Shown piece after piece: positions 840-27,736 of a DNA stretch of 64,000 nt (its first letter is position 1; each line of letters opens with the position of its first letter). The notes under the pieces are model-generated. The model was not told the DNA's origin, searched no databases, and saw only the letters and a program-made list of their open reading frames with translations. The position numbers were made by a program, and so were the translations under genes. Source of the stretch: a phage; sequence record PV419677.1. The stretch is one strand, 5' to 3'.

Positions 840-1514
840 TTATTTTATTAATGTGTTAAGTCTTAGCTTAGTCATAAACGGATAACGTTCCAACATTGGC
901 TTTACCCAGTATCGAGGATGCAATTCCTTTTTATATGCTAGGACCAACTCTCGAGCTTGCTCGACGGTATCAACTCCGAAGTTTTTACACATTTCTTGCC
1001 TATCTTTTTCCCACCGGCGCTTTCTCAATTCATCCTGAATCTCTTTATTTTTAAAATGTTCATTATTGCGAGAATGTTTTGTACCCTTGGTTGGACTGTA
1101 ATGTCTTCCTTTGACAAACCCATCCGGAACATCTTCCCATGGAAATAGTTTTATCGATTTGACACCATTATTAAAGTAAACTTTACCGGTTTGACTTTTA
1201 GAAATATTGTCAGCGTGCCTACGTCTTAACCAACCAAATAATTTATTATTGCGTTTCAAATACTTGCTTGACTGACTCATAGATGTGGCGGCAAAACTTA
1301 AACCTGGATTTGTATGATATATTTTAACCAATAGTTGATGGGCTACATAATGTTCCTCTGGAGTCAAATCGACCAGATTATCTGGGTCATTGGAACCGCC
1401 CATACATTTTGGAATGATGTGATGAGATTCTTTATATGAAATCAGGACCCTATTACGGGCCCTTTCAATTAACGATAAATATATAAACTGATAATTCAAA
1501 GTGAATTTCTCCAT
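840..1514 (-). CDS. HNH homing endonuclease (freestanding, Mob-like)
   Basis: Motif [31 protein letters not shown] is a classic HNH core; AT-rich relative to neighbours; absent from this position in T4; start overlaps the 3' end of gene 2 by 19 nt. Confidence 0.8.
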
Positions 1515-2332
1515 ACTTTCTGTGAAGAAAATCTTTTGCCTTTTGAAAAAAACTGCTGAAGGGGGAGTAATACAACGTTTGCCCAGTCGCTGGGCTTGAT
1601 TTCAGTGATAGTACCTTTTATATTGCCAGGTATATATGCTTTAATCATCTGGTCAGCCCCTTTAAATCCCTTCACCTTTGACCAATCAATCTTCAGATGA
1701 GTCTTGTTTGTAATCGTAGGAGTATTGGCATATTGTTTAAGAAGTTCCTCAAGGAACTCTTGACGTGCCTTCGGTGGAATATAGTGCAAGTTCAAACCAT
1801 ACATCAAATTGTGCTTACCTAGCCCAAGATAAATGATTAACGGATATTTGTCCCAGTATGGAAGAGTATCCTTATGCTTTGCATCATAGATATAAGCATA
1901 AAGTTTGCCCGGTTGAGGTTTAGCCGTTACGTGCCCACGAACTGATTTCTTAATTGTCTCTGCGAACCATCTGGCAGATTTGGTGTTGCTTGCAGCACCT
2001 TCGTTAGCAATCTTATCTCTTATGCTCTTTCTAAAGCTATTCACCATTATCAGCTGGCGTTCTGCCTTCGTAAGTTTACCAGCAGGTTTCTTTTTGAGTT
2101 TAGATACTTTATAAGCAGTCTGAATTCTTGAATTGTATCTTGACATGCTTTTGGTAAAGGTCGAATAGTTGATTCCTTTCTCTTCAGCAAACTTCTTCGA
2201 GGTCATTCCCTTTTCTTTTGCTGTATAAAATTCAACCCCTATCTCAACCCATTGTTGTTCGGATTTACTGGGTTTCGGACCTGGTTTATCTGCAGATTCA
2301 TTGATAAATGTAAAAATACTCATCCTTTCCAT
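1496..2332 (-). CDS. 2: gp2 DNA end-protector protein
   Basis: 278 aa (T4 gp2 about 274 aa); synteny between genes 3 and 4. Confidence 0.75.
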
Positions 2333-3048
2333 CCTTCTATAAAATTAATCAAATCATTTTTTAAATAGTATGGTAAGGTTTCTGTATAGCCATCGACCAT
2401 AATATCTTTATTCAAATAACCTCTGTCTTTTATATATAATACAGATATTGCGGATTCTAACATTTTGGCTTGTGCACCCAGTTCAAATTCTCGATAATAT
2501 AATTTGGAACTAATGCATTTGGAAAAATGATTTTGCTGCCACAATCTAAAATCATGATTGGAAGTTATACCATACTTTAAAGCAGTTCCGCCCGGATATT
2601 CTATTTTATTAACATAAACAATAGCAGGTTTCTTTGCGTTAAATCCTTTGTGACAACAGTTTGGACATCCTTTGTTTTTTGTTGTAAAGTTGTTTAGATT
2701 TGTAATCCAACTGGTTGAACATGTAGAACACTTTATATAGGCTTTTGATTTTGTAAAAGTTGAATATGTGGTATCCCATTTATCAAAACTATACAATGGA
2801 TTCACGGAATTTATTCTTGTGATTGCATCTAATTCAGATATTAATTTGCTTTCACCATAAGAACGTTTTAAATTACAATTAGAACACCAACTTTTTGTTT
2901 TTAACTTATGCTTTAAAACAGTTGCTTTGTATTTGCATGTTTCTTCACATATAAAGCACTTTACAAATATCAAAGTTTTTGATTTATTAAAATCGCCTTG
3001 TCCCACTATCTCGCCATTTGTGATGTTAAAATCTGAACAATCGTACAT
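2320..3048 (-). CDS. Cys-rich protein (four CxxC pairs) with GIY-YIG-like C-terminal half; putative nuclease inserted between genes 2 and 4
   Basis: N-terminal [23 protein letters not shown]; C-terminal [29 protein letters not shown]...YREFELG resembles the GIY(10-11)YIG, Arg and Glu pattern of I-TevI-type domains; start ATG overlaps gp4 stop (TAATG), stop overlaps gp2 start. Confidence 0.45.
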
Positions 3049-3500
3049 TATAAACCCTTATATCCCATTTTTCTAAGCGCATCTTCAGTAATCAATCTAA
3101 ACTGGATGCCCATTTTATCGGCTACGGCCTGCGCTGCTTTCCACTTATCCTTGTTGACGGCCCAAGTGTACATTTCGTTCATGAATCTCTTCTTGCTCGC
3201 GGCAGTCGTATTAACTGGTTTTGCTGGAGGCCTTGTTTCCTTTTTGGGTTTGACCTCAAAGAAAAACTGTTGTCCATTTGAGAATTTCACCCACATATCC
3301 ATGTAATATCTGCGTTTTTTACCATCCGCATTACTGAAATATGGAATAATTACGGTCTCTGACCCCCATTGCACCACATCTGGATGATTATCCAACCAGT
3401 TAAATACAAATTTTTCCCAGTTTGACCTGTATGTGATTTTCTTCCAGTCTCCTTTGTACTTGGCAACGTTTTTTGGCTGCCACTTCCCGGAGTATGCCAT
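3048..3500 (-). CDS. 4: gp4 head completion protein
   Basis: 150 aa, same length as T4 gp4; SD AGGAGG before ATG at 3500; synteny. Confidence 0.75.
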   Translation of the reverse strand: MAYSGKWQPKNVAKYKGDWKKITYRSNWEKFVFNWLDNHPDVVQWGSETVIIPYFSNADGKKRRYYMDMWVKFSNGQQFFFEVKPKKETRPPAKPVNTTAASKKRFMNEMYTWAVNKDKWKAAQAVADKMGIQFRLITEDALRKMGYKGL

Positions 3501-3548
3501 ATAGCCTCCTAATAAATATTGATATACTTATTTATAAATGGAGGCTTT

Positions 3549-4151
3549 ATGCTTTTTTCATTTTTTAACCCAATTGATTATGATGCTAAAACAATCAGAA
3601 AAAACTCGGCATCATTAACGAAAGAAGACGTCTTAAGCATCCCAATGACTGACATCTTCAGAAACTATCGTGCATATTTTGATAAGGTTGCGGTTAATTA
3701 TACACCGAAAACATATTACATCGCTGGAGCTCCAAGACCTGAAGAACTTGCATATCAGCTCTATGGTAATACTCAACTCTATTGGGTTCTCCTTATGCTT
3801 AATGATATCTATGACCCGTATTATGGTTGGATATGTTCACAAGAATCATCATATCAGGCATCAATTCAACGCTATTCGAATATAGGTGGTAATCAGGTTC
3901 TTTATCATGTAAATGAAGATGGTGAAAAATTCTGGAATCTTGTTTCTTATCCTGATAATCCATACACATGGTATGATAAAGGTGATAAGAACAAATTATA
4001 CCCACAGTATGAAGGCCCATTAGCTGCAGTGGATATCTACGAAGATGCTATTCGCAAAAATGAATATAAACGAGAAATAAAGATAATCGACCCTAATGAT
4101 ATCGAATCATTTATTTCGGCATTAATCCGCGAGATGGAGAAGGCGCTATGA
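3549..4151 (+). CDS. 53: gp53 baseplate wedge protein
   Basis: Track ORF begins at a TTG (3519); ATG at 3549 preceded by GGAGG gives MLFSFFNPIDYDAKT..., matching the recalled T4 gp53 N-terminus; about 200 aa. Confidence 0.85.
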   Translation: MLFSFFNPIDYDAKTIRKNSASLTKEDVLSIPMTDIFRNYRAYFDKVAVNYTPKTYYIAGAPRPEELAYQLYGNTQLYWVLLMLNDIYDPYYGWICSQESSYQASIQRYSNIGGNQVLYHVNEDGEKFWNLVSYPDNPYTWYDKGDKNKLYPQYEGPLAAVDIYEDAIRKNEYKREIKIIDPNDIESFISALIREMEKAL

Positions 4152-5890
4152 TTAATATGTCAGATAGTGTAAGTTGGTTCGTCGGTGTTGTCGAAGACCG
4201 AATGGACCCACTTCAACAAGGTCGTGTTCGTGTTCGTGTATGGGGTATGCATCCATATGAGAAATCGCAAGGGCCTGTAAAAGGTATCAGAACTGAAGAC
4301 CTGCCCTGGATGTCTGTATTGATGCCAACATCATCTGCATCGGTTTCCGGTATTCAAACTGCCATGACTGGTATGGTCCCGGGTACTCAAGTATATGGTC
4401 ACTTTTTGGACAAATGGAAGCTCAATGGATTAGTCCTTGGTACATATGGCTCAGCATCAAGACAGAAGGCAAACACAACAGAAGGTTTTAGTGACCCCAC
4501 AGGGCAATATCCGCTTTATGTGGGCAATGATGCTGCTGCGCTTAACCGAGGCGGTGAGGTCGGTTATGATGACACTTCAAACGTAATTCAGGATGCAAAC
4601 CTTGATTTGGGTATTAACCCTGATGGCCTTGATTTGAGTCAAGTTAAGCCAGATGATAATCCTAATTTCACAATTGAAAATATGCTTCACCGCGATGAAG
4701 GTCTTCGTCTGAAAGTATATTGGGACACTGAAGGTTATCCTACTATAGGTATAGGACACTTAATTACACCACAACCTATTAGAGATATGAATCAGATAAA
4801 CAAAATATTATCCAATCAAATAGGCCGTGAAGTTAAAGGTAACCCTGGTGCAATATCAATGGACGAGGCTTCTAAGTTATTCCAAGAAGACCTTAAAAAA
4901 GTCCAAAATGATATAGGTAGACATAGTGTTGTAGGTCCGGTTTACAATAAAGAAAACCGTTCAAGACAAATGGCTCTTGAAAACATGGCTTTCCAAATGG
5001 GATTAGGTGGACTTGCTAAATTCCGTGGAATGCTTAGTGCAATGTTAATAGGCGATTATAAAAAGGCATTTGAAGAAGCTCGCAATTCAGTATGGTTTAA
5101 CCAAACTAAAGGACGTGCATCAAGGGTATCAATGATTATCCTTACTGGTAATATGGAATCATATGGTATTATGGCCCCTAAAGAAATGGAATTTAAAGGG
5201 CGTTCATATAGGATGATTCAAACCTTTGCGGCCCCTACAAATTCTGACCCGGCCGACCCGTGGACTCCAGAAGATACGAGGATTCTATTTAAAGAGCCAG
5301 AATCAAGTTACAAGGGCGAATATCCTTATGTACAGACAATGCAAACCGAAGGCGGACATATTCAGGAATTCGATAACACTCCAGGACAAGAACGTTATCG
5401 ACTGATTCATCCGACCGGTTCCTATGAGGAAGTTGCACCAGATGGTCGTAAGACTTCGAAGACGGTAGCCGATGGCTATTATATGACCCAGGGTGATTCA
5501 AGCACTTATGTTGGCGGGAATAATAAAGTCAACGTTGGCGGTGATGAAACCTATTACAATATGGCTAACGTTCGTCGTCAGACTGATGGAAACGAAAGTA
5601 TTCATATCAGAGGGAATGAAACCAAAACTATCGAAGGTGATGGTACAATTATCGTCAAAGGTAATGTAAGTATTCTTGTCGAAGGTAATGCTGAAATAAC
5701 TGTCAAAGGCGATGCAAAAACTCTTGTCGAAGGTGACCATGATTATACGGTAAATGGTAATGTCAAATGGTCCGTTAATGGAAACGTTGATATGACCGTG
5801 GCTGGCAATTGGTCCGAAACAATGTCAACAATGAGTTCTATTGCATCTGGTCAATATACTATTGATGGTTCGAGGATTGACATTGGCTAA
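4148..5890 (+). CDS. 5: gp5 baseplate central spike with lysozyme domain
   Basis: 580 aa; lysozyme core EGLRLKVYWDTEGYPTIGIGHL (T4 lysozyme-like); C-terminal beta-helix repeats (VKGNVSILVEGNAEITVKGDAKTLVEGD...). Confidence 0.95.
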   Translation: MINMSDSVSWFVGVVEDRMDPLQQGRVRVRVWGMHPYEKSQGPVKGIRTEDLPWMSVLMPTSSASVSGIQTAMTGMVPGTQVYGHFLDKWKLNGLVLGTYGSASRQKANTTEGFSDPTGQYPLYVGNDAAALNRGGEVGYDDTSNVIQDANLDLGINPDGLDLSQVKPDDNPNFTIENMLHRDEGLRLKVYWDTEGYPTIGIGHLITPQPIRDMNQINKILSNQIGREVKGNPGAISMDEASKLFQEDLKKVQNDIGRHSVVGPVYNKENRSRQMALENMAFQMGLGGLAKFRGMLSAMLIGDYKKAFEEARNSVWFNQTKGRASRVSMIILTGNMESYGIMAPKEMEFKGRSYRMIQTFAAPTNSDPADPWTPEDTRILFKEPESSYKGEYPYVQTMQTEGGHIQEFDNTPGQERYRLIHPTGSYEEVAPDGRKTSKTVADGYYMTQGDSSTYVGGNNKVNVGGDETYYNMANVRRQTDGNESIHIRGNETKTIEGDGTIIVKGNVSILVEGNAEITVKGDAKTLVEGDHDYTVNGNVKWSVNGNVDMTVAGNWSETMSTMSSIASGQYTIDGSRIDIG

Positions 5891-25083: not shown

Positions 25084-27063
25084 ATGGCTTTATTATCCCC
25101 GGGCATTGAGCTCAAAGAAACAACGGTACAAAGCACTGTTGTTCGTAACGCGACGGGTCGTGCGGCGCTGGTTGGTAAATTCCAGTGGGGCCCAGCTTTC
25201 CAGGTAACTCAAATTACAAACGAAGTTGAACTTGTTGATTTGTTTGGTGGTCCGAATAATGAAACAGCAGATTACTTTATGAGTGGGATGAACTTCCTGC
25301 AATATGGTAATGACCTCCGTACTGTACGTGTTGTTAACCGTGACGAAGCTAAAAACGCATCCCCTATTGCTGGCAATATTGAAACTACCATCGTAACTGC
25401 TGGTACAAACTATGCTGTCGGTGATGTTATTCAGGTTAAACACAACCAGACTGTTGTTGAACCGGCTGGCCGTGTGACCAAGGTCGACGTTGATGGTAAA
25501 ATTCTGGCAATCTTTATTCCTACAAATAAGATTATTGCATTTGCCAAAACTATTAACCAGTATCCTAATTTAGGTAGTGCATGGACCGCGGAAGTTACAA
25601 CCACTTCTTCTGGTGTATCTGGTACCATCACCGTTGGGAAAATTGTTACCGATTCTGGCATTCTGTTGACTGAAGCAGAAAACAGTGAAGAAGCAATTAC
25701 TTCTCTGGAATTCCAGGCATCACTAGCAAAATATGCAATGCCAGGTGTTGTTGCTCTTTATCCAGGTGAAATCGGTTCGACTTTGGAAGTTGAAATCGTA
25801 TCTAAAGCTGACTTTGAAAAAGGCGCAGCTGCAAATCTGAATATTTTCCCAGGCGGCGGAACGCGTGCTTCTGTGGCTCGTGCCGTGTTTAACTATGGCC
25901 CGCAGTCTGAAAACCAATATGCAATTATCGTTCGCCGCGATGGCGCAATCGTCGAAAACGTTGTTTTGTCTACCAAACAGGGCGAAAAAGATGTTTACGG
26001 TAATAACATTTACTTGGATGACTACTTTGCAAAAGGTACTTCCAACTACATCTATGCAACATCTCGCAACTGGCCTGCAGGCTTCAGTGGTATCATCAAT
26101 CTGTCTGGTGGTATTTCTGCAAACGATAAGATTACCGCTGGTGATTTGATGCAAGGTTGGGACCTGTTTGCTGACCGTGAAGCACTGCATATTAACCTGC
26201 TTATCGCTGGTGCTGTTGCCGGTGAAGGTGATGCGACTGCTTCCACTGTTCAGAAACACGTGGTTTCTATTGCTGACGAACGTCAGGATTGTCTGGCATT
26301 TATTTCCCCGCCGAAAGGTCTGTTGGTTAACGTTCCTCTGACCCGTGCAGTGGATAACCTGATTGACTGGCGTACAGGTGCTGGCGCATTTGATACTGAT
26401 AACATGAATATCAGCACGACTTATGCAGCGATTGATGGCAACTATAAATATCAGTATGATAAATATAATGACGTTAACCGTTGGGTTCCTCTGGCAGCTG
26501 ATATGGCTGGTCTGTGTGCTCGTACTGATGATGTTTCTCAGCCTTGGATGTCTCCGGCTGGTTATAACCGCGGTCAGATTCTGAACGTTCTGAAATTGGC
26601 TGTTGAACCACGTCAGACCCAACGTGACCGCATGTATCAAGAAGCTATCAACCCGGTTGTTGGTTTCGCAGGTGGTGATGGTTTTGTTCTGTATGGTGAT
26701 AAGACTGCAACTAAAGTTCCATCTCCGATGGACCATATTAACGTTCGTCGTCTTACGAATATGCTGAAGAAAAATATCGGTGATGCATCCAAATATAAAC
26801 TGTTTGAGCTTAACGATAACTTCACTCGTGCATCATTCCGTATGGAAACTTCTCAATACTTGGATGGTATTCGTGCACTTGGTGGCATTTATGAAGGTCG
26901 TGTAGTTTGTGATACTACTAACAACACCCCGGCGGTTATAGACCGAAATGAGTTTGTTGCTAGCATATATTTTAAACCAGCAAGGTCGATAAATTTTATC
27001 ACGCTTAATTTCGTAGCAACAAGCACGGGCGCTGATTTTGATGAGTTGATTGGAGCGAACTAA
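25084..27063 (+). CDS. 18: gp18 tail sheath protein
   Basis: 659 aa equals T4 gp18. Confidence 0.95.
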   Translation: MALLSPGIELKETTVQSTVVRNATGRAALVGKFQWGPAFQVTQITNEVELVDLFGGPNNETADYFMSGMNFLQYGNDLRTVRVVNRDEAKNASPIAGNIETTIVTAGTNYAVGDVIQVKHNQTVVEPAGRVTKVDVDGKILAIFIPTNKIIAFAKTINQYPNLGSAWTAEVTTTSSGVSGTITVGKIVTDSGILLTEAENSEEAITSLEFQASLAKYAMPGVVALYPGEIGSTLEVEIVSKADFEKGAAANLNIFPGGGTRASVARAVFNYGPQSENQYAIIVRRDGAIVENVVLSTKQGEKDVYGNNIYLDDYFAKGTSNYIYATSRNWPAGFSGIINLSGGISANDKITAGDLMQGWDLFADREALHINLLIAGAVAGEGDATASTVQKHVVSIADERQDCLAFISPPKGLLVNVPLTRAVDNLIDWRTGAGAFDTDNMNISTTYAAIDGNYKYQYDKYNDVNRWVPLAADMAGLCARTDDVSQPWMSPAGYNRGQILNVLKLAVEPRQTQRDRMYQEAINPVVGFAGGDGFVLYGDKTATKVPSPMDHINVRRLTNMLKKNIGDASKYKLFELNDNFTRASFRMETSQYLDGIRALGGIYEGRVVCDTTNNTPAVIDRNEFVASIYFKPARSINFITLNFVATSTGADFDELIGAN

Positions 27064-27130: not shown

Positions 27131-27736
27131 GTGATTATTTCTAAATTTGTTGAAGTTCAAATACGAAATCATGCAAAGTGGTGGAGCGAATACTTAGGTA
27201 AAACTCTAACATATCATGATGTGATTTCTGTACCAGTTGAACAAATGCCAGATAATAGTAATAAAAAGATTGAATGTTCCTGTGATGAATGTGGTGCACA
27301 TTTTGAACGTGGTATTCAGTTGCTTCGGCGCGTTGATAAACATTTATGTAAGACCTGCGCAAGAAAAGATGTGGGTGCAAAAGTTTCTGTAAAAATGGCT
27401 GGAGTATCAAGATTTGATTTACGAGGAGAAAACCACCCTAGATGGAAAGGTAATCGCAAAGAATATGATTTGTATGCCCAGCGCATTCATGCATTAACTC
27501 GTGGAAAACATCTAAAGAATATTTGGTCAACATGGGAAAATGCAGATAAGATAGGAAAATGTGGAGAAGAAGGTGCATATCAGCTTGACCATAAAGTTTC
27601 TATTGCATATGGATTTTATAATCATATACCAGAGACAGTTATCGCTTCGCTCAACAATTTAGAAATAGTCACTTGGGAATCTAATAGGTCCAAAGGAAAA
27701 TCAAATAGTATTGACTTATGGGATATATTATCCTGA
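27131..27736 (+). CDS. HNH homing endonuclease with N-terminal zinc ribbon, inserted between genes 18 and 19
   Basis: CSCDEC...CKTC zinc ribbon; ENHPRWKG; YQLDHKVSIAYGF...NNLEIVTWESNRSKG (HNH core); GTG start with SD AAGGA; no gene here in T4. Confidence 0.8.
   Translation: MIISKFVEVQIRNHAKWWSEYLGKTLTYHDVISVPVEQMPDNSNKKIECSCDECGAHFERGIQLLRRVDKHLCKTCARKDVGAKVSVKMAGVSRFDLRGENHPRWKGNRKEYDLYAQRIHALTRGKHLKNIWSTWENADKIGKCGEEGAYQLDHKVSIAYGFYNHIPETVIASLNNLEIVTWESNRSKGKSNSIDLWDILS

Follow-up and report, generated by a model that had tools for sequence, protein, structure and literature searches.

Introduction

Endonuclease genes of the T5orf172 type have been surveyed by Barth, Dunham and Seed (2023, PMC10448857), who found one or more N-terminal CapR/DUF723/DUF4379 zinc fingers in 200 of 229 of them, the fingers being strung ahead of the nuclease domain like "beads on a string". 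These genes are variably present, adjoin essential genes and mark boundaries of genetic exchange, and phage T4 carries none; more generally, homing endonuclease genes often decay after fixation (PMC10448857). The finger domain is best known from CapR, the PLE repressor, a Cys4 zinc-finger DNA-binding domain that is homologous to the N-termini of ICP1 proteins with a C-terminal T5orf172 domain (Netter et al. 2021, PMC8096241). T5 Orf141 was named in the same work as a relative of the ICP1 CapR-domain proteins, and a homing-endonuclease role was proposed for these T5orf172-bearing proteins (PMC8096241). A further protein, Odn, combines an N-terminal DNA-binding domain with a C-terminal T5orf172 domain and cuts DNA in vitro, an activity that is abolished by the E180A substitution (PMC8263062).

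Here, we describe an open reading frame (ORF) of this kind in a 64,000-nucleotide stretch of phage DNA (sequence record PV419677.1), referred to below as the window. The window derives from a T4-like phage of the Gaprivervirus type. Over the first 5.3 kb it is identical to Shigella phage fPSFA, and it shares ~96% identity there with phages DK-13 and vB_EcoM_RZ (RZ). The ORF is labelled "hypothetical protein" in the GenBank records of fPSFA, DK-13, RZ and the Yersinia phage MHG19, and a search of the literature on these four carrier phages found no paper on the gene.

Results

The ORF occupies positions 2320..3048 of the window on the minus strand, begins with ATG and encodes 242 residues; we regard it as a putative free-standing homing-endonuclease gene. 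Profile searches and an AF2 model give it two Cys4 zinc-finger modules followed by a T5orf172-like domain of the GIY-YIG superfamily. An initial annotation, made from the sequence alone, had described an AT-rich ORF of this length with four CxxC pairs, overlapping both of its neighbours in a place where T4 has no gene, and our analysis confirmed this description throughout. GC content is 0.298 in the ORF compared with 0.417 in gp4, 0.388 in gp2 and 0.407 in the window, and the four pairs are C31-C34, C55-C58, C107-C110 and C128-C131. The upstream overlap is 1 nt, a single base being common to the ATG of the ORF (3048..3046) and the TAA stop of gp4 (3050..3048). The downstream overlap is 4 nt, an ATGA in which the TGA stop of the ORF (2322..2320) runs into the ATG of gp2 (2323..2321). 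In T4 itself, gene 4 (76885..77337) and gene 2 (76061..76885) have nothing between them, and the close relatives VR25 and UPEC07 likewise lack a gene at this place. By tblastn and profile search, the window contains no second copy of the ORF.

The N-terminal half of the protein carries the two zinc-finger modules. Module 2 (aa 86-135; window 2644..2793, minus strand; C107, C110, C128 and C131) is probably a finger of the CapR/DUF4379 treble-clef type and is presumed to bind DNA. Its C128 and C131 are invariant in alignment A1, which comprises the query and 30 homologs of similar length (31 sequences). The query itself scores under the Pfam cut-offs in this half, both for the CapR homology domain (PF21817; 21.7 bits, cut-off 24.2) and for DUF4379 (PF14311, "probable treble clef zinc finger"; 20.8 bits, cut-off 24.5). 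The MHG19 ortholog, which is 69% identical to the query, exceeds both cut-offs (30.6 bits for CapR, 27.2 for DUF4379), as does T5.141 (85.9 and 29). When the family profile was compared with PDB sequences, matches were obtained in the zinc-finger part only, to a DUF4379 mitoribosome factor (E 0.002) and to HypA, with module 2 matching the DUF4379 chain 6sga_Fd. Module 1 (aa 12-68; window 2845..3015, minus strand) contains C31, C34, C55 and C58, of which the last two are at least 90% conserved in A1. It is predicted to adopt a beta-beta-beta-alpha topology with a CxxC at the start of the helix, the AF2 model placing strands at residues 12-17, 26-31 and 37-41 and helices at 42-51 and 56-68. Scanned alone, module 1 matched no Pfam family, neither CapR nor DUF4379, and so its family assignment comes from cysteine pattern and topology only. 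In the AF2 model both modules are beta-beta-beta-alpha units; each has one CxxC in a knuckle and the other following the helix. The two may be repeats of each other, as judged from cysteine spacing and predicted topology only; a BLASTP comparison of module 1 with module 2 was not significant (E 1.7). The initial annotation had predicted two zinc ribbons. The predicted Cys4 zinc-binding character stands, whereas the ribbon class does not, the classifiable modules being of the CapR/DUF4379 treble-clef type by Pfam and AF2.

The C-terminal domain (aa 141-238; window 2335..2628, minus strand) belongs to the GIY-YIG superfamily and is T5orf172/MUG113-like. Its motif residues are Y145 (in VYV), K158-Y-G-I-T162, R168, E198 and G220-Y-T-E-T224. 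Eleven positions of the protein are invariant in A1 (C128, C131, Y145, K158, G160, R168, G191, E198, G220, E223 and T224) and a further six are at least 90% conserved (C55, C58, P129, G135, I161 and T222). The core positions Y145, K158-Y159-G160, R168 and E198 are thus invariant or nearly so among the 31 sequences, and from motif order we infer that they would correspond to Y6, Y17, R27 and E75 of I-TevI. The position four residues past the conserved arginine is usually His or Tyr in classical GIY-YIG enzymes. Here it is Gln in the query and Gln or His in the homologs of A1. The AF2 model, which is confident overall (mean pLDDT 91), shows an alpha/beta domain over aa 142-238 with the core fold of the superfamily, a three-stranded sheet that includes the "GIY" and "YIG" strands. 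GIY-YIG nucleases top the fold search, and the BFVD viral structure library returned 145 matches at E up to 0.001, the named ones including a CapR homology domain, a T5 Orf172 DNA-binding domain, a GIY-YIG domain and a homing endonuclease. The GIY-YIG-like segment proposed in the initial annotation is thus borne out by Pfam matches of homologs, by conserved motifs and by the fold search. The domain is nevertheless too divergent for the Pfam T5orf172 model (PF10544), which gave no match to the query at E up to 10. The MHG19 ortholog reached 19.5 bits at aa 144-210, just under the gathering cut-off of 20 bits, and 15 bits against MUG113. We accordingly describe the domain as T5orf172-like and of the same clan, and not as a member by the Pfam rule. 

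Since the query lies under the Pfam cut-offs, its family assignment was made via the ortholog, the homologs and the predicted fold. The query matches PHROG 681, "endonuclease" (aa 19-239, E 2.5e-29). An exhaustive HMMER search recovered 1097 clusters of homologs (E up to 0.001), in many of which the finger module is repeated; a word-indexed search recovered the identical protein and the MHG19 ortholog only. The phage T5 homolog is T5.141, with 36% identity over aa 86-227 (E 8e-17). Within A1, DUF4379 is matched by 26 of the 31 sequences, CapR by 21, MUG113 by 16, T5orf172 by 9 and the classical GIY-YIG family by 5. Neither the PADLOC anti-phage defence models nor NCBIfam gave a match to the ORF, or in the latter case a useful one. 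We also considered a conserved structural protein and rejected it: the homologs are named endonuclease, CapR homology, T5 Orf172 or GIY-YIG, no structural annotation exists among them, and T4 and most relatives manage without the gene. Compared with the MHG19 ortholog, the ORF has a dN/dS of 0.15, similar in both halves, at a dS near saturation. Two points of the initial annotation need qualification in the light of these assignments. The domain order is indeed the reverse of that in Seg and I-TevI, yet it is not unusual, as it is the standard one in the T5orf172 homing-endonuclease family (PMC10448857). Similarly, of the proposed "unusual nuclease or nuclease-derived regulator" the nuclease-type domain is retained and the word unusual is not; the invariance of the catalytic-type residues and the purifying selection on them make an active nuclease more likely than a regulator.

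The distribution of the ORF is sporadic. By tblastn, identity of at least 99% was found in four records only (fPSFA, DK-13 and RZ twice), followed by MHG19 at 69% and all others below 60%. Orthologs are thus present in 5 of the 178 tblastn-positive phage records, equivalent to 4 isolates, and nearly all of the ~590 T4-like records that match the surrounding region lack one. Otherwise collinear close relatives thus either have the gene or lack it, always at one position flanked by conserved genes, the pattern expected of a homing gene. MHG19 and the next three closest homologs (69, 44, 38 and 34% identity; the last three, P0003-P0005, metagenomic) come from different T4-like genomes or contigs, and all four occupy the gp4/gp2 slot with an AT content above that of the sequence around them. 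No copy seen has a disrupted reading frame. A comparison with RZ revealed a tract free of differences at window positions 2293..3155. It covers the ORF together with 27 nt of gp2 and 107 nt of gp4, and the flanks around it diverge by 3.5%. Of the 729 nt of the ORF, none differs from RZ and two differ from DK-13; at the rate of 3.5% seen in flanking gp2 and gp4, the probability of this by chance is about 7e-12 (RZ) and 1e-9 (DK-13). We interpret the tract as the probable, if indirect, footprint of a recent lateral transfer with short co-converted flanks.

The slot between gp4 and gp2 can hold another gene. In the sister phages P479, vB_YenM_P8 (P8) and PSD2001 it is occupied by a 215-aa Seg-type GIY-YIG endonuclease gene. 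The two sides of the slot differ in their relationship to endonuclease-free phages. On the gp2 side, most 45-nt blocks of the window are 93-100% identical to VR25, the lowest being 87%. On the gp4 side, the window is 62-80% identical in nucleotides to VR25 and UPEC07, compared with 78-100% per block to P479 and P8 (92% overall to P479). A megablast search with the gp4 allele of the window returned exactly seven records, and 7 of 7 have an endonuclease gene in the gp4/gp2 slot. The allele is therefore linked to slot occupancy. We also observed that gp4 is mosaic among Gapriverviruses more generally, the empty-site phages VR25 and UPEC07 sharing 74% nucleotide identity in gp4 next to a near-identical gp2. 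In these alignments the gp4/gp2 junction appears as a recombination boundary whichever endonuclease gene is present. The locus offers a clean added case for the published idea that nuclease genes lie at boundaries of genetic exchange.

The ends of the insertion were examined by comparison with the empty sites. In VR25 and UPEC07, gp4 ends in LGWKG and a stop codon, encoded by TTAGGATGGAAAGGATGAGT, in which GGAAAGGA is the ribosome-binding site and ATGA the stop/start overlap with gp2. The ORF ends in EGWKG and a stop codon, encoded by GAAGGATGGAAAGGATGAGT, and the comparison of the two identifies its last 15 nt, GGATGGAAAGGATGA (2320..2334, minus strand; GWKG and stop), as a copy of the native gp4 3' end that includes the Shine-Dalgarno sequence and the ATGA overlap for gp2. 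In MHG19, the same 18 nt (AGGATGGAAAGGATAATG) are found at the gp4 end and at the ORF end, so that a direct repeat flanks the insert. Translation of gp2 is coupled to the upstream gene by these signals, which the element thus retains. The downstream gene, gp2 (1496..2323, minus strand; DNA end protector, PHROG 429), starts with MSIFTF, and its start is annotated as MSIF in relatives. A mechanical ORF list starts gp2 at an in-frame upstream ATG (MERMSIF, 2332) rather than at 2323 as in relatives; this ATG lies inside the 15-nt gp4-end copy (window 2321..2332) and is probably not used.

At the other end of the ORF, AAGGG stands six bases ahead of the ATG. A hairpin hides the ribosome-binding site in some T4 endonuclease genes. 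We detected none masking that of the ORF (z = +1.24). The T4-type late promoter consensus TATAAATA occurs at 3529..3536 on the minus strand, just upstream of gp4 (3048..3500, minus strand; head completion, TnsA-like fold by a profile family match), and this is its only match in the first 6000 bases on both strands. It is likely that gp4, the ORF and gp2 form one late transcript from this promoter. Co-translation with the two head genes, as stated in the initial annotation, would be consistent with the 1-nt and 4-nt overlaps and with the late promoter upstream of gp4. 

We also recorded other candidate endonuclease genes. The interval between gp3 and gp2 holds a second free-standing endonuclease gene (window 840..1514, minus strand; 224 aa, HNH motif; PHROG 655 "homing endonuclease", E 2.4e-56). 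Its VR25 counterpart is annotated as MobB-like, and the gene is found in VR25, P479 and UPEC07 and not in RZ, DK-13 or P8. With this gene and the ORF at 2320..3048, gp2 is bracketed by two endonuclease genes. Further away, a 201-aa ORF (27131..27736, plus strand) follows the tail sheath gene (25084..27063) and precedes the next tail gene. This ORF combines an N-terminal CxxC...CxxC finger with a C-terminal HNH-looking stretch (QLDHKVS...N). It matches PHROG 5104 (unknown function, E 2.8e-75), with a weak match to a "homing endonuclease" PHROG and another to the profile of the 242-aa ORF's family (E 6e-5), and matched neither Pfam nor PADLOC. This is probably another zinc-finger-first endonuclease gene. 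Occupancy varies in adjacent slots as well. In UPEC07, an HNH endonuclease gene (3047..3754) is present between gp4 and gp53 and overlaps the start of an extended gp4, and in P479 a 211-aa ORF (4370..5005; PHROG 314 "homing endonuclease", E 5e-49) is found between gp53 and gp5. Finally, gp4 itself matches Pfam Tn7_TnsA-like_N (E 2.9e-22), giving it a restriction-endonuclease-like fold, and is annotated as "head completion nuclease" in one relative.

Discussion

We consider it probable that the ORF is a homing endonuclease gene of the free-standing kind, belonging to the T5orf172 branch of the GIY-YIG superfamily and to the type represented by T5.141 and the ICP1 proteins. The analysis establishes its domain make-up, conserved motifs, fold, patchy occurrence, transfer footprint and restriction to the slot; cleavage of DNA, a target site and homing itself are inferred. 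A late transcript starting at the promoter ahead of gp4 would carry such a gene along with gp4 and gp2, and its translation would be coupled to the gp4 stop. The two Cys4 zinc-finger modules would bind a specific DNA sequence and the GIY-YIG-type domain (Y145, Y159, R168 and E198) would cut nearby. During co-infection, the endonuclease would act on a phage without the gene, at its uninterrupted gp4/gp2 junction, and recombinational repair from the endonuclease-bearing genome would copy the gene and short flanks into the cut genome. We propose that the carrier genome may be protected because the insertion splits the junction and the gp4 allele differs. We further propose that, with the 15-nt copy of the gp4 end kept (ribosome-binding site and ATGA), expression of the essential gp2 may proceed undisturbed.

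A clade that is confined to one slot across divergent T4-like phages could instead point to a host-beneficial role. The ORF might then be a domesticated relative of an endonuclease, acting as a DNA-binding regulator comparable to CapR or as a weapon against competitors or satellites comparable to Odn, and not be purely selfish. CapR and Odn exemplify both routes within this family, and the faithfulness of the clade to its slot, the purifying selection on it and the tight coupling of the ORF to late head genes would all fit. We nonetheless judge domestication unlikely: almost all close relatives lack the ORF, its place can be taken by a Seg-type endonuclease gene, it shows the footprint of a recent transfer, it retains the full nuclease-type domain with invariant motif residues, unlike CapR, and PADLOC offers no match. 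The ORF could also be a decaying, inactive remnant that no longer cuts DNA, a fate that often befalls homing endonuclease genes once fixed (PMC10448857). The Gln in place of the usual His/Tyr after the conserved Arg and the scores under the Pfam cut-offs could be taken as signs of such decay. They have to be set against a frame that is intact in every copy seen, a dN/dS of 0.15 in both halves, the preservation of all motif residues and the near-identical copies in phages with differing flanks, which indicate recent spread; inactivity is on this balance quite improbable.

We give very little credence to a functional partnership in which the ORF would help gp4, with its nuclease fold of the TnsA type, and the DNA end protector gp2 to complete heads or process DNA ends. 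Although in this clade the ORF is always found between gp4 and gp2 and overlaps both, heads are completed without it in T4 and in hundreds of related phages, members of the family are found in unrelated slots of T5, jumbo phages and vibriophages, and an unrelated Seg gene occupies the very same slot. 

Returning to a homing endonuclease, a broader, tentative possibility concerns the slot itself, and we rate it as doubtful at present. The gp4/gp2 junction may be a long-lived contested site, in which a slot-specific T5orf172-like clade and an unrelated Seg-type endonuclease replace one another in association with one linked gp4 allele. The allele itself could be immune to cleavage and travel with whichever of the endonuclease genes occupies the slot. 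If true, the junction would provide a natural system for competition between homing endonuclease families, and also for endonuclease-driven allele replacement in an essential head gene. More immediately, the assignment fills an annotation gap for a gene labelled "hypothetical protein" and extends the T5orf172/CapR-finger endonuclease family into the Tevenvirinae. No general concept is changed by it.

Among known proteins, the closest solved structures are those of the GIY-YIG structure-specific nucleases SLX1 and At-HIGLE. These serve as a structural reference only (16-18% identity), as both are repair enzymes of eukaryotes whose partner domains are different. Seg and I-TevI share with the ORF the GIY-YIG superfamily and the free-standing position between conserved genes, Seg-type genes even using the same slot. 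They differ in having the GIY-YIG domain first and the DNA-binding NUMOD, zinc-finger or HTH part last. The ORF has no detectable sequence similarity to the Seg-type protein of P479, and hhalign of the family profile against this single sequence gave a probability of 1.8%, a single-sequence template being of no help for a relationship this distant. CapR of the Vibrio cholerae PLE satellite has a homologous Cys4 zinc-finger domain (PF21817), but consists of the finger domain alone, without a nuclease domain, and represses the ICP1 capsid operon. Odn (ICP1 Gp88, origin-directed nuclease) resembles the ORF in placing DNA binding first and the T5orf172-type domain last, in keeping the conserved Arg and Glu, and in lacking the usual His/Tyr of helix 1; it supplies biochemical proof that domains of this type cleave DNA. 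Unlike the ORF, it binds through a RepA_N domain taken from the satellite and not through zinc fingers, and it is an anti-satellite weapon rather than a homing element. The same order as in the ORF, N-terminal Cys4 module(s) followed by a C-terminal T5orf172-like domain, is found in ICP1 Gp53, Gp121, Gp130, Gp165 and Gp174 and in T5 Orf141 (T5.141). Like the ORF, the T5orf172 genes of ICP1 and T5 lie beside essential structural genes, are variably present and sit at a boundary of genetic exchange. The ORF differs from them in residing in a Tevenvirinae phage (Gaprivervirus) and in belonging to a sub-clade so far seen only in the gp4/gp2 slot. Its architecture, family and life style have all been described previously, and the ORF adds one more member to them.
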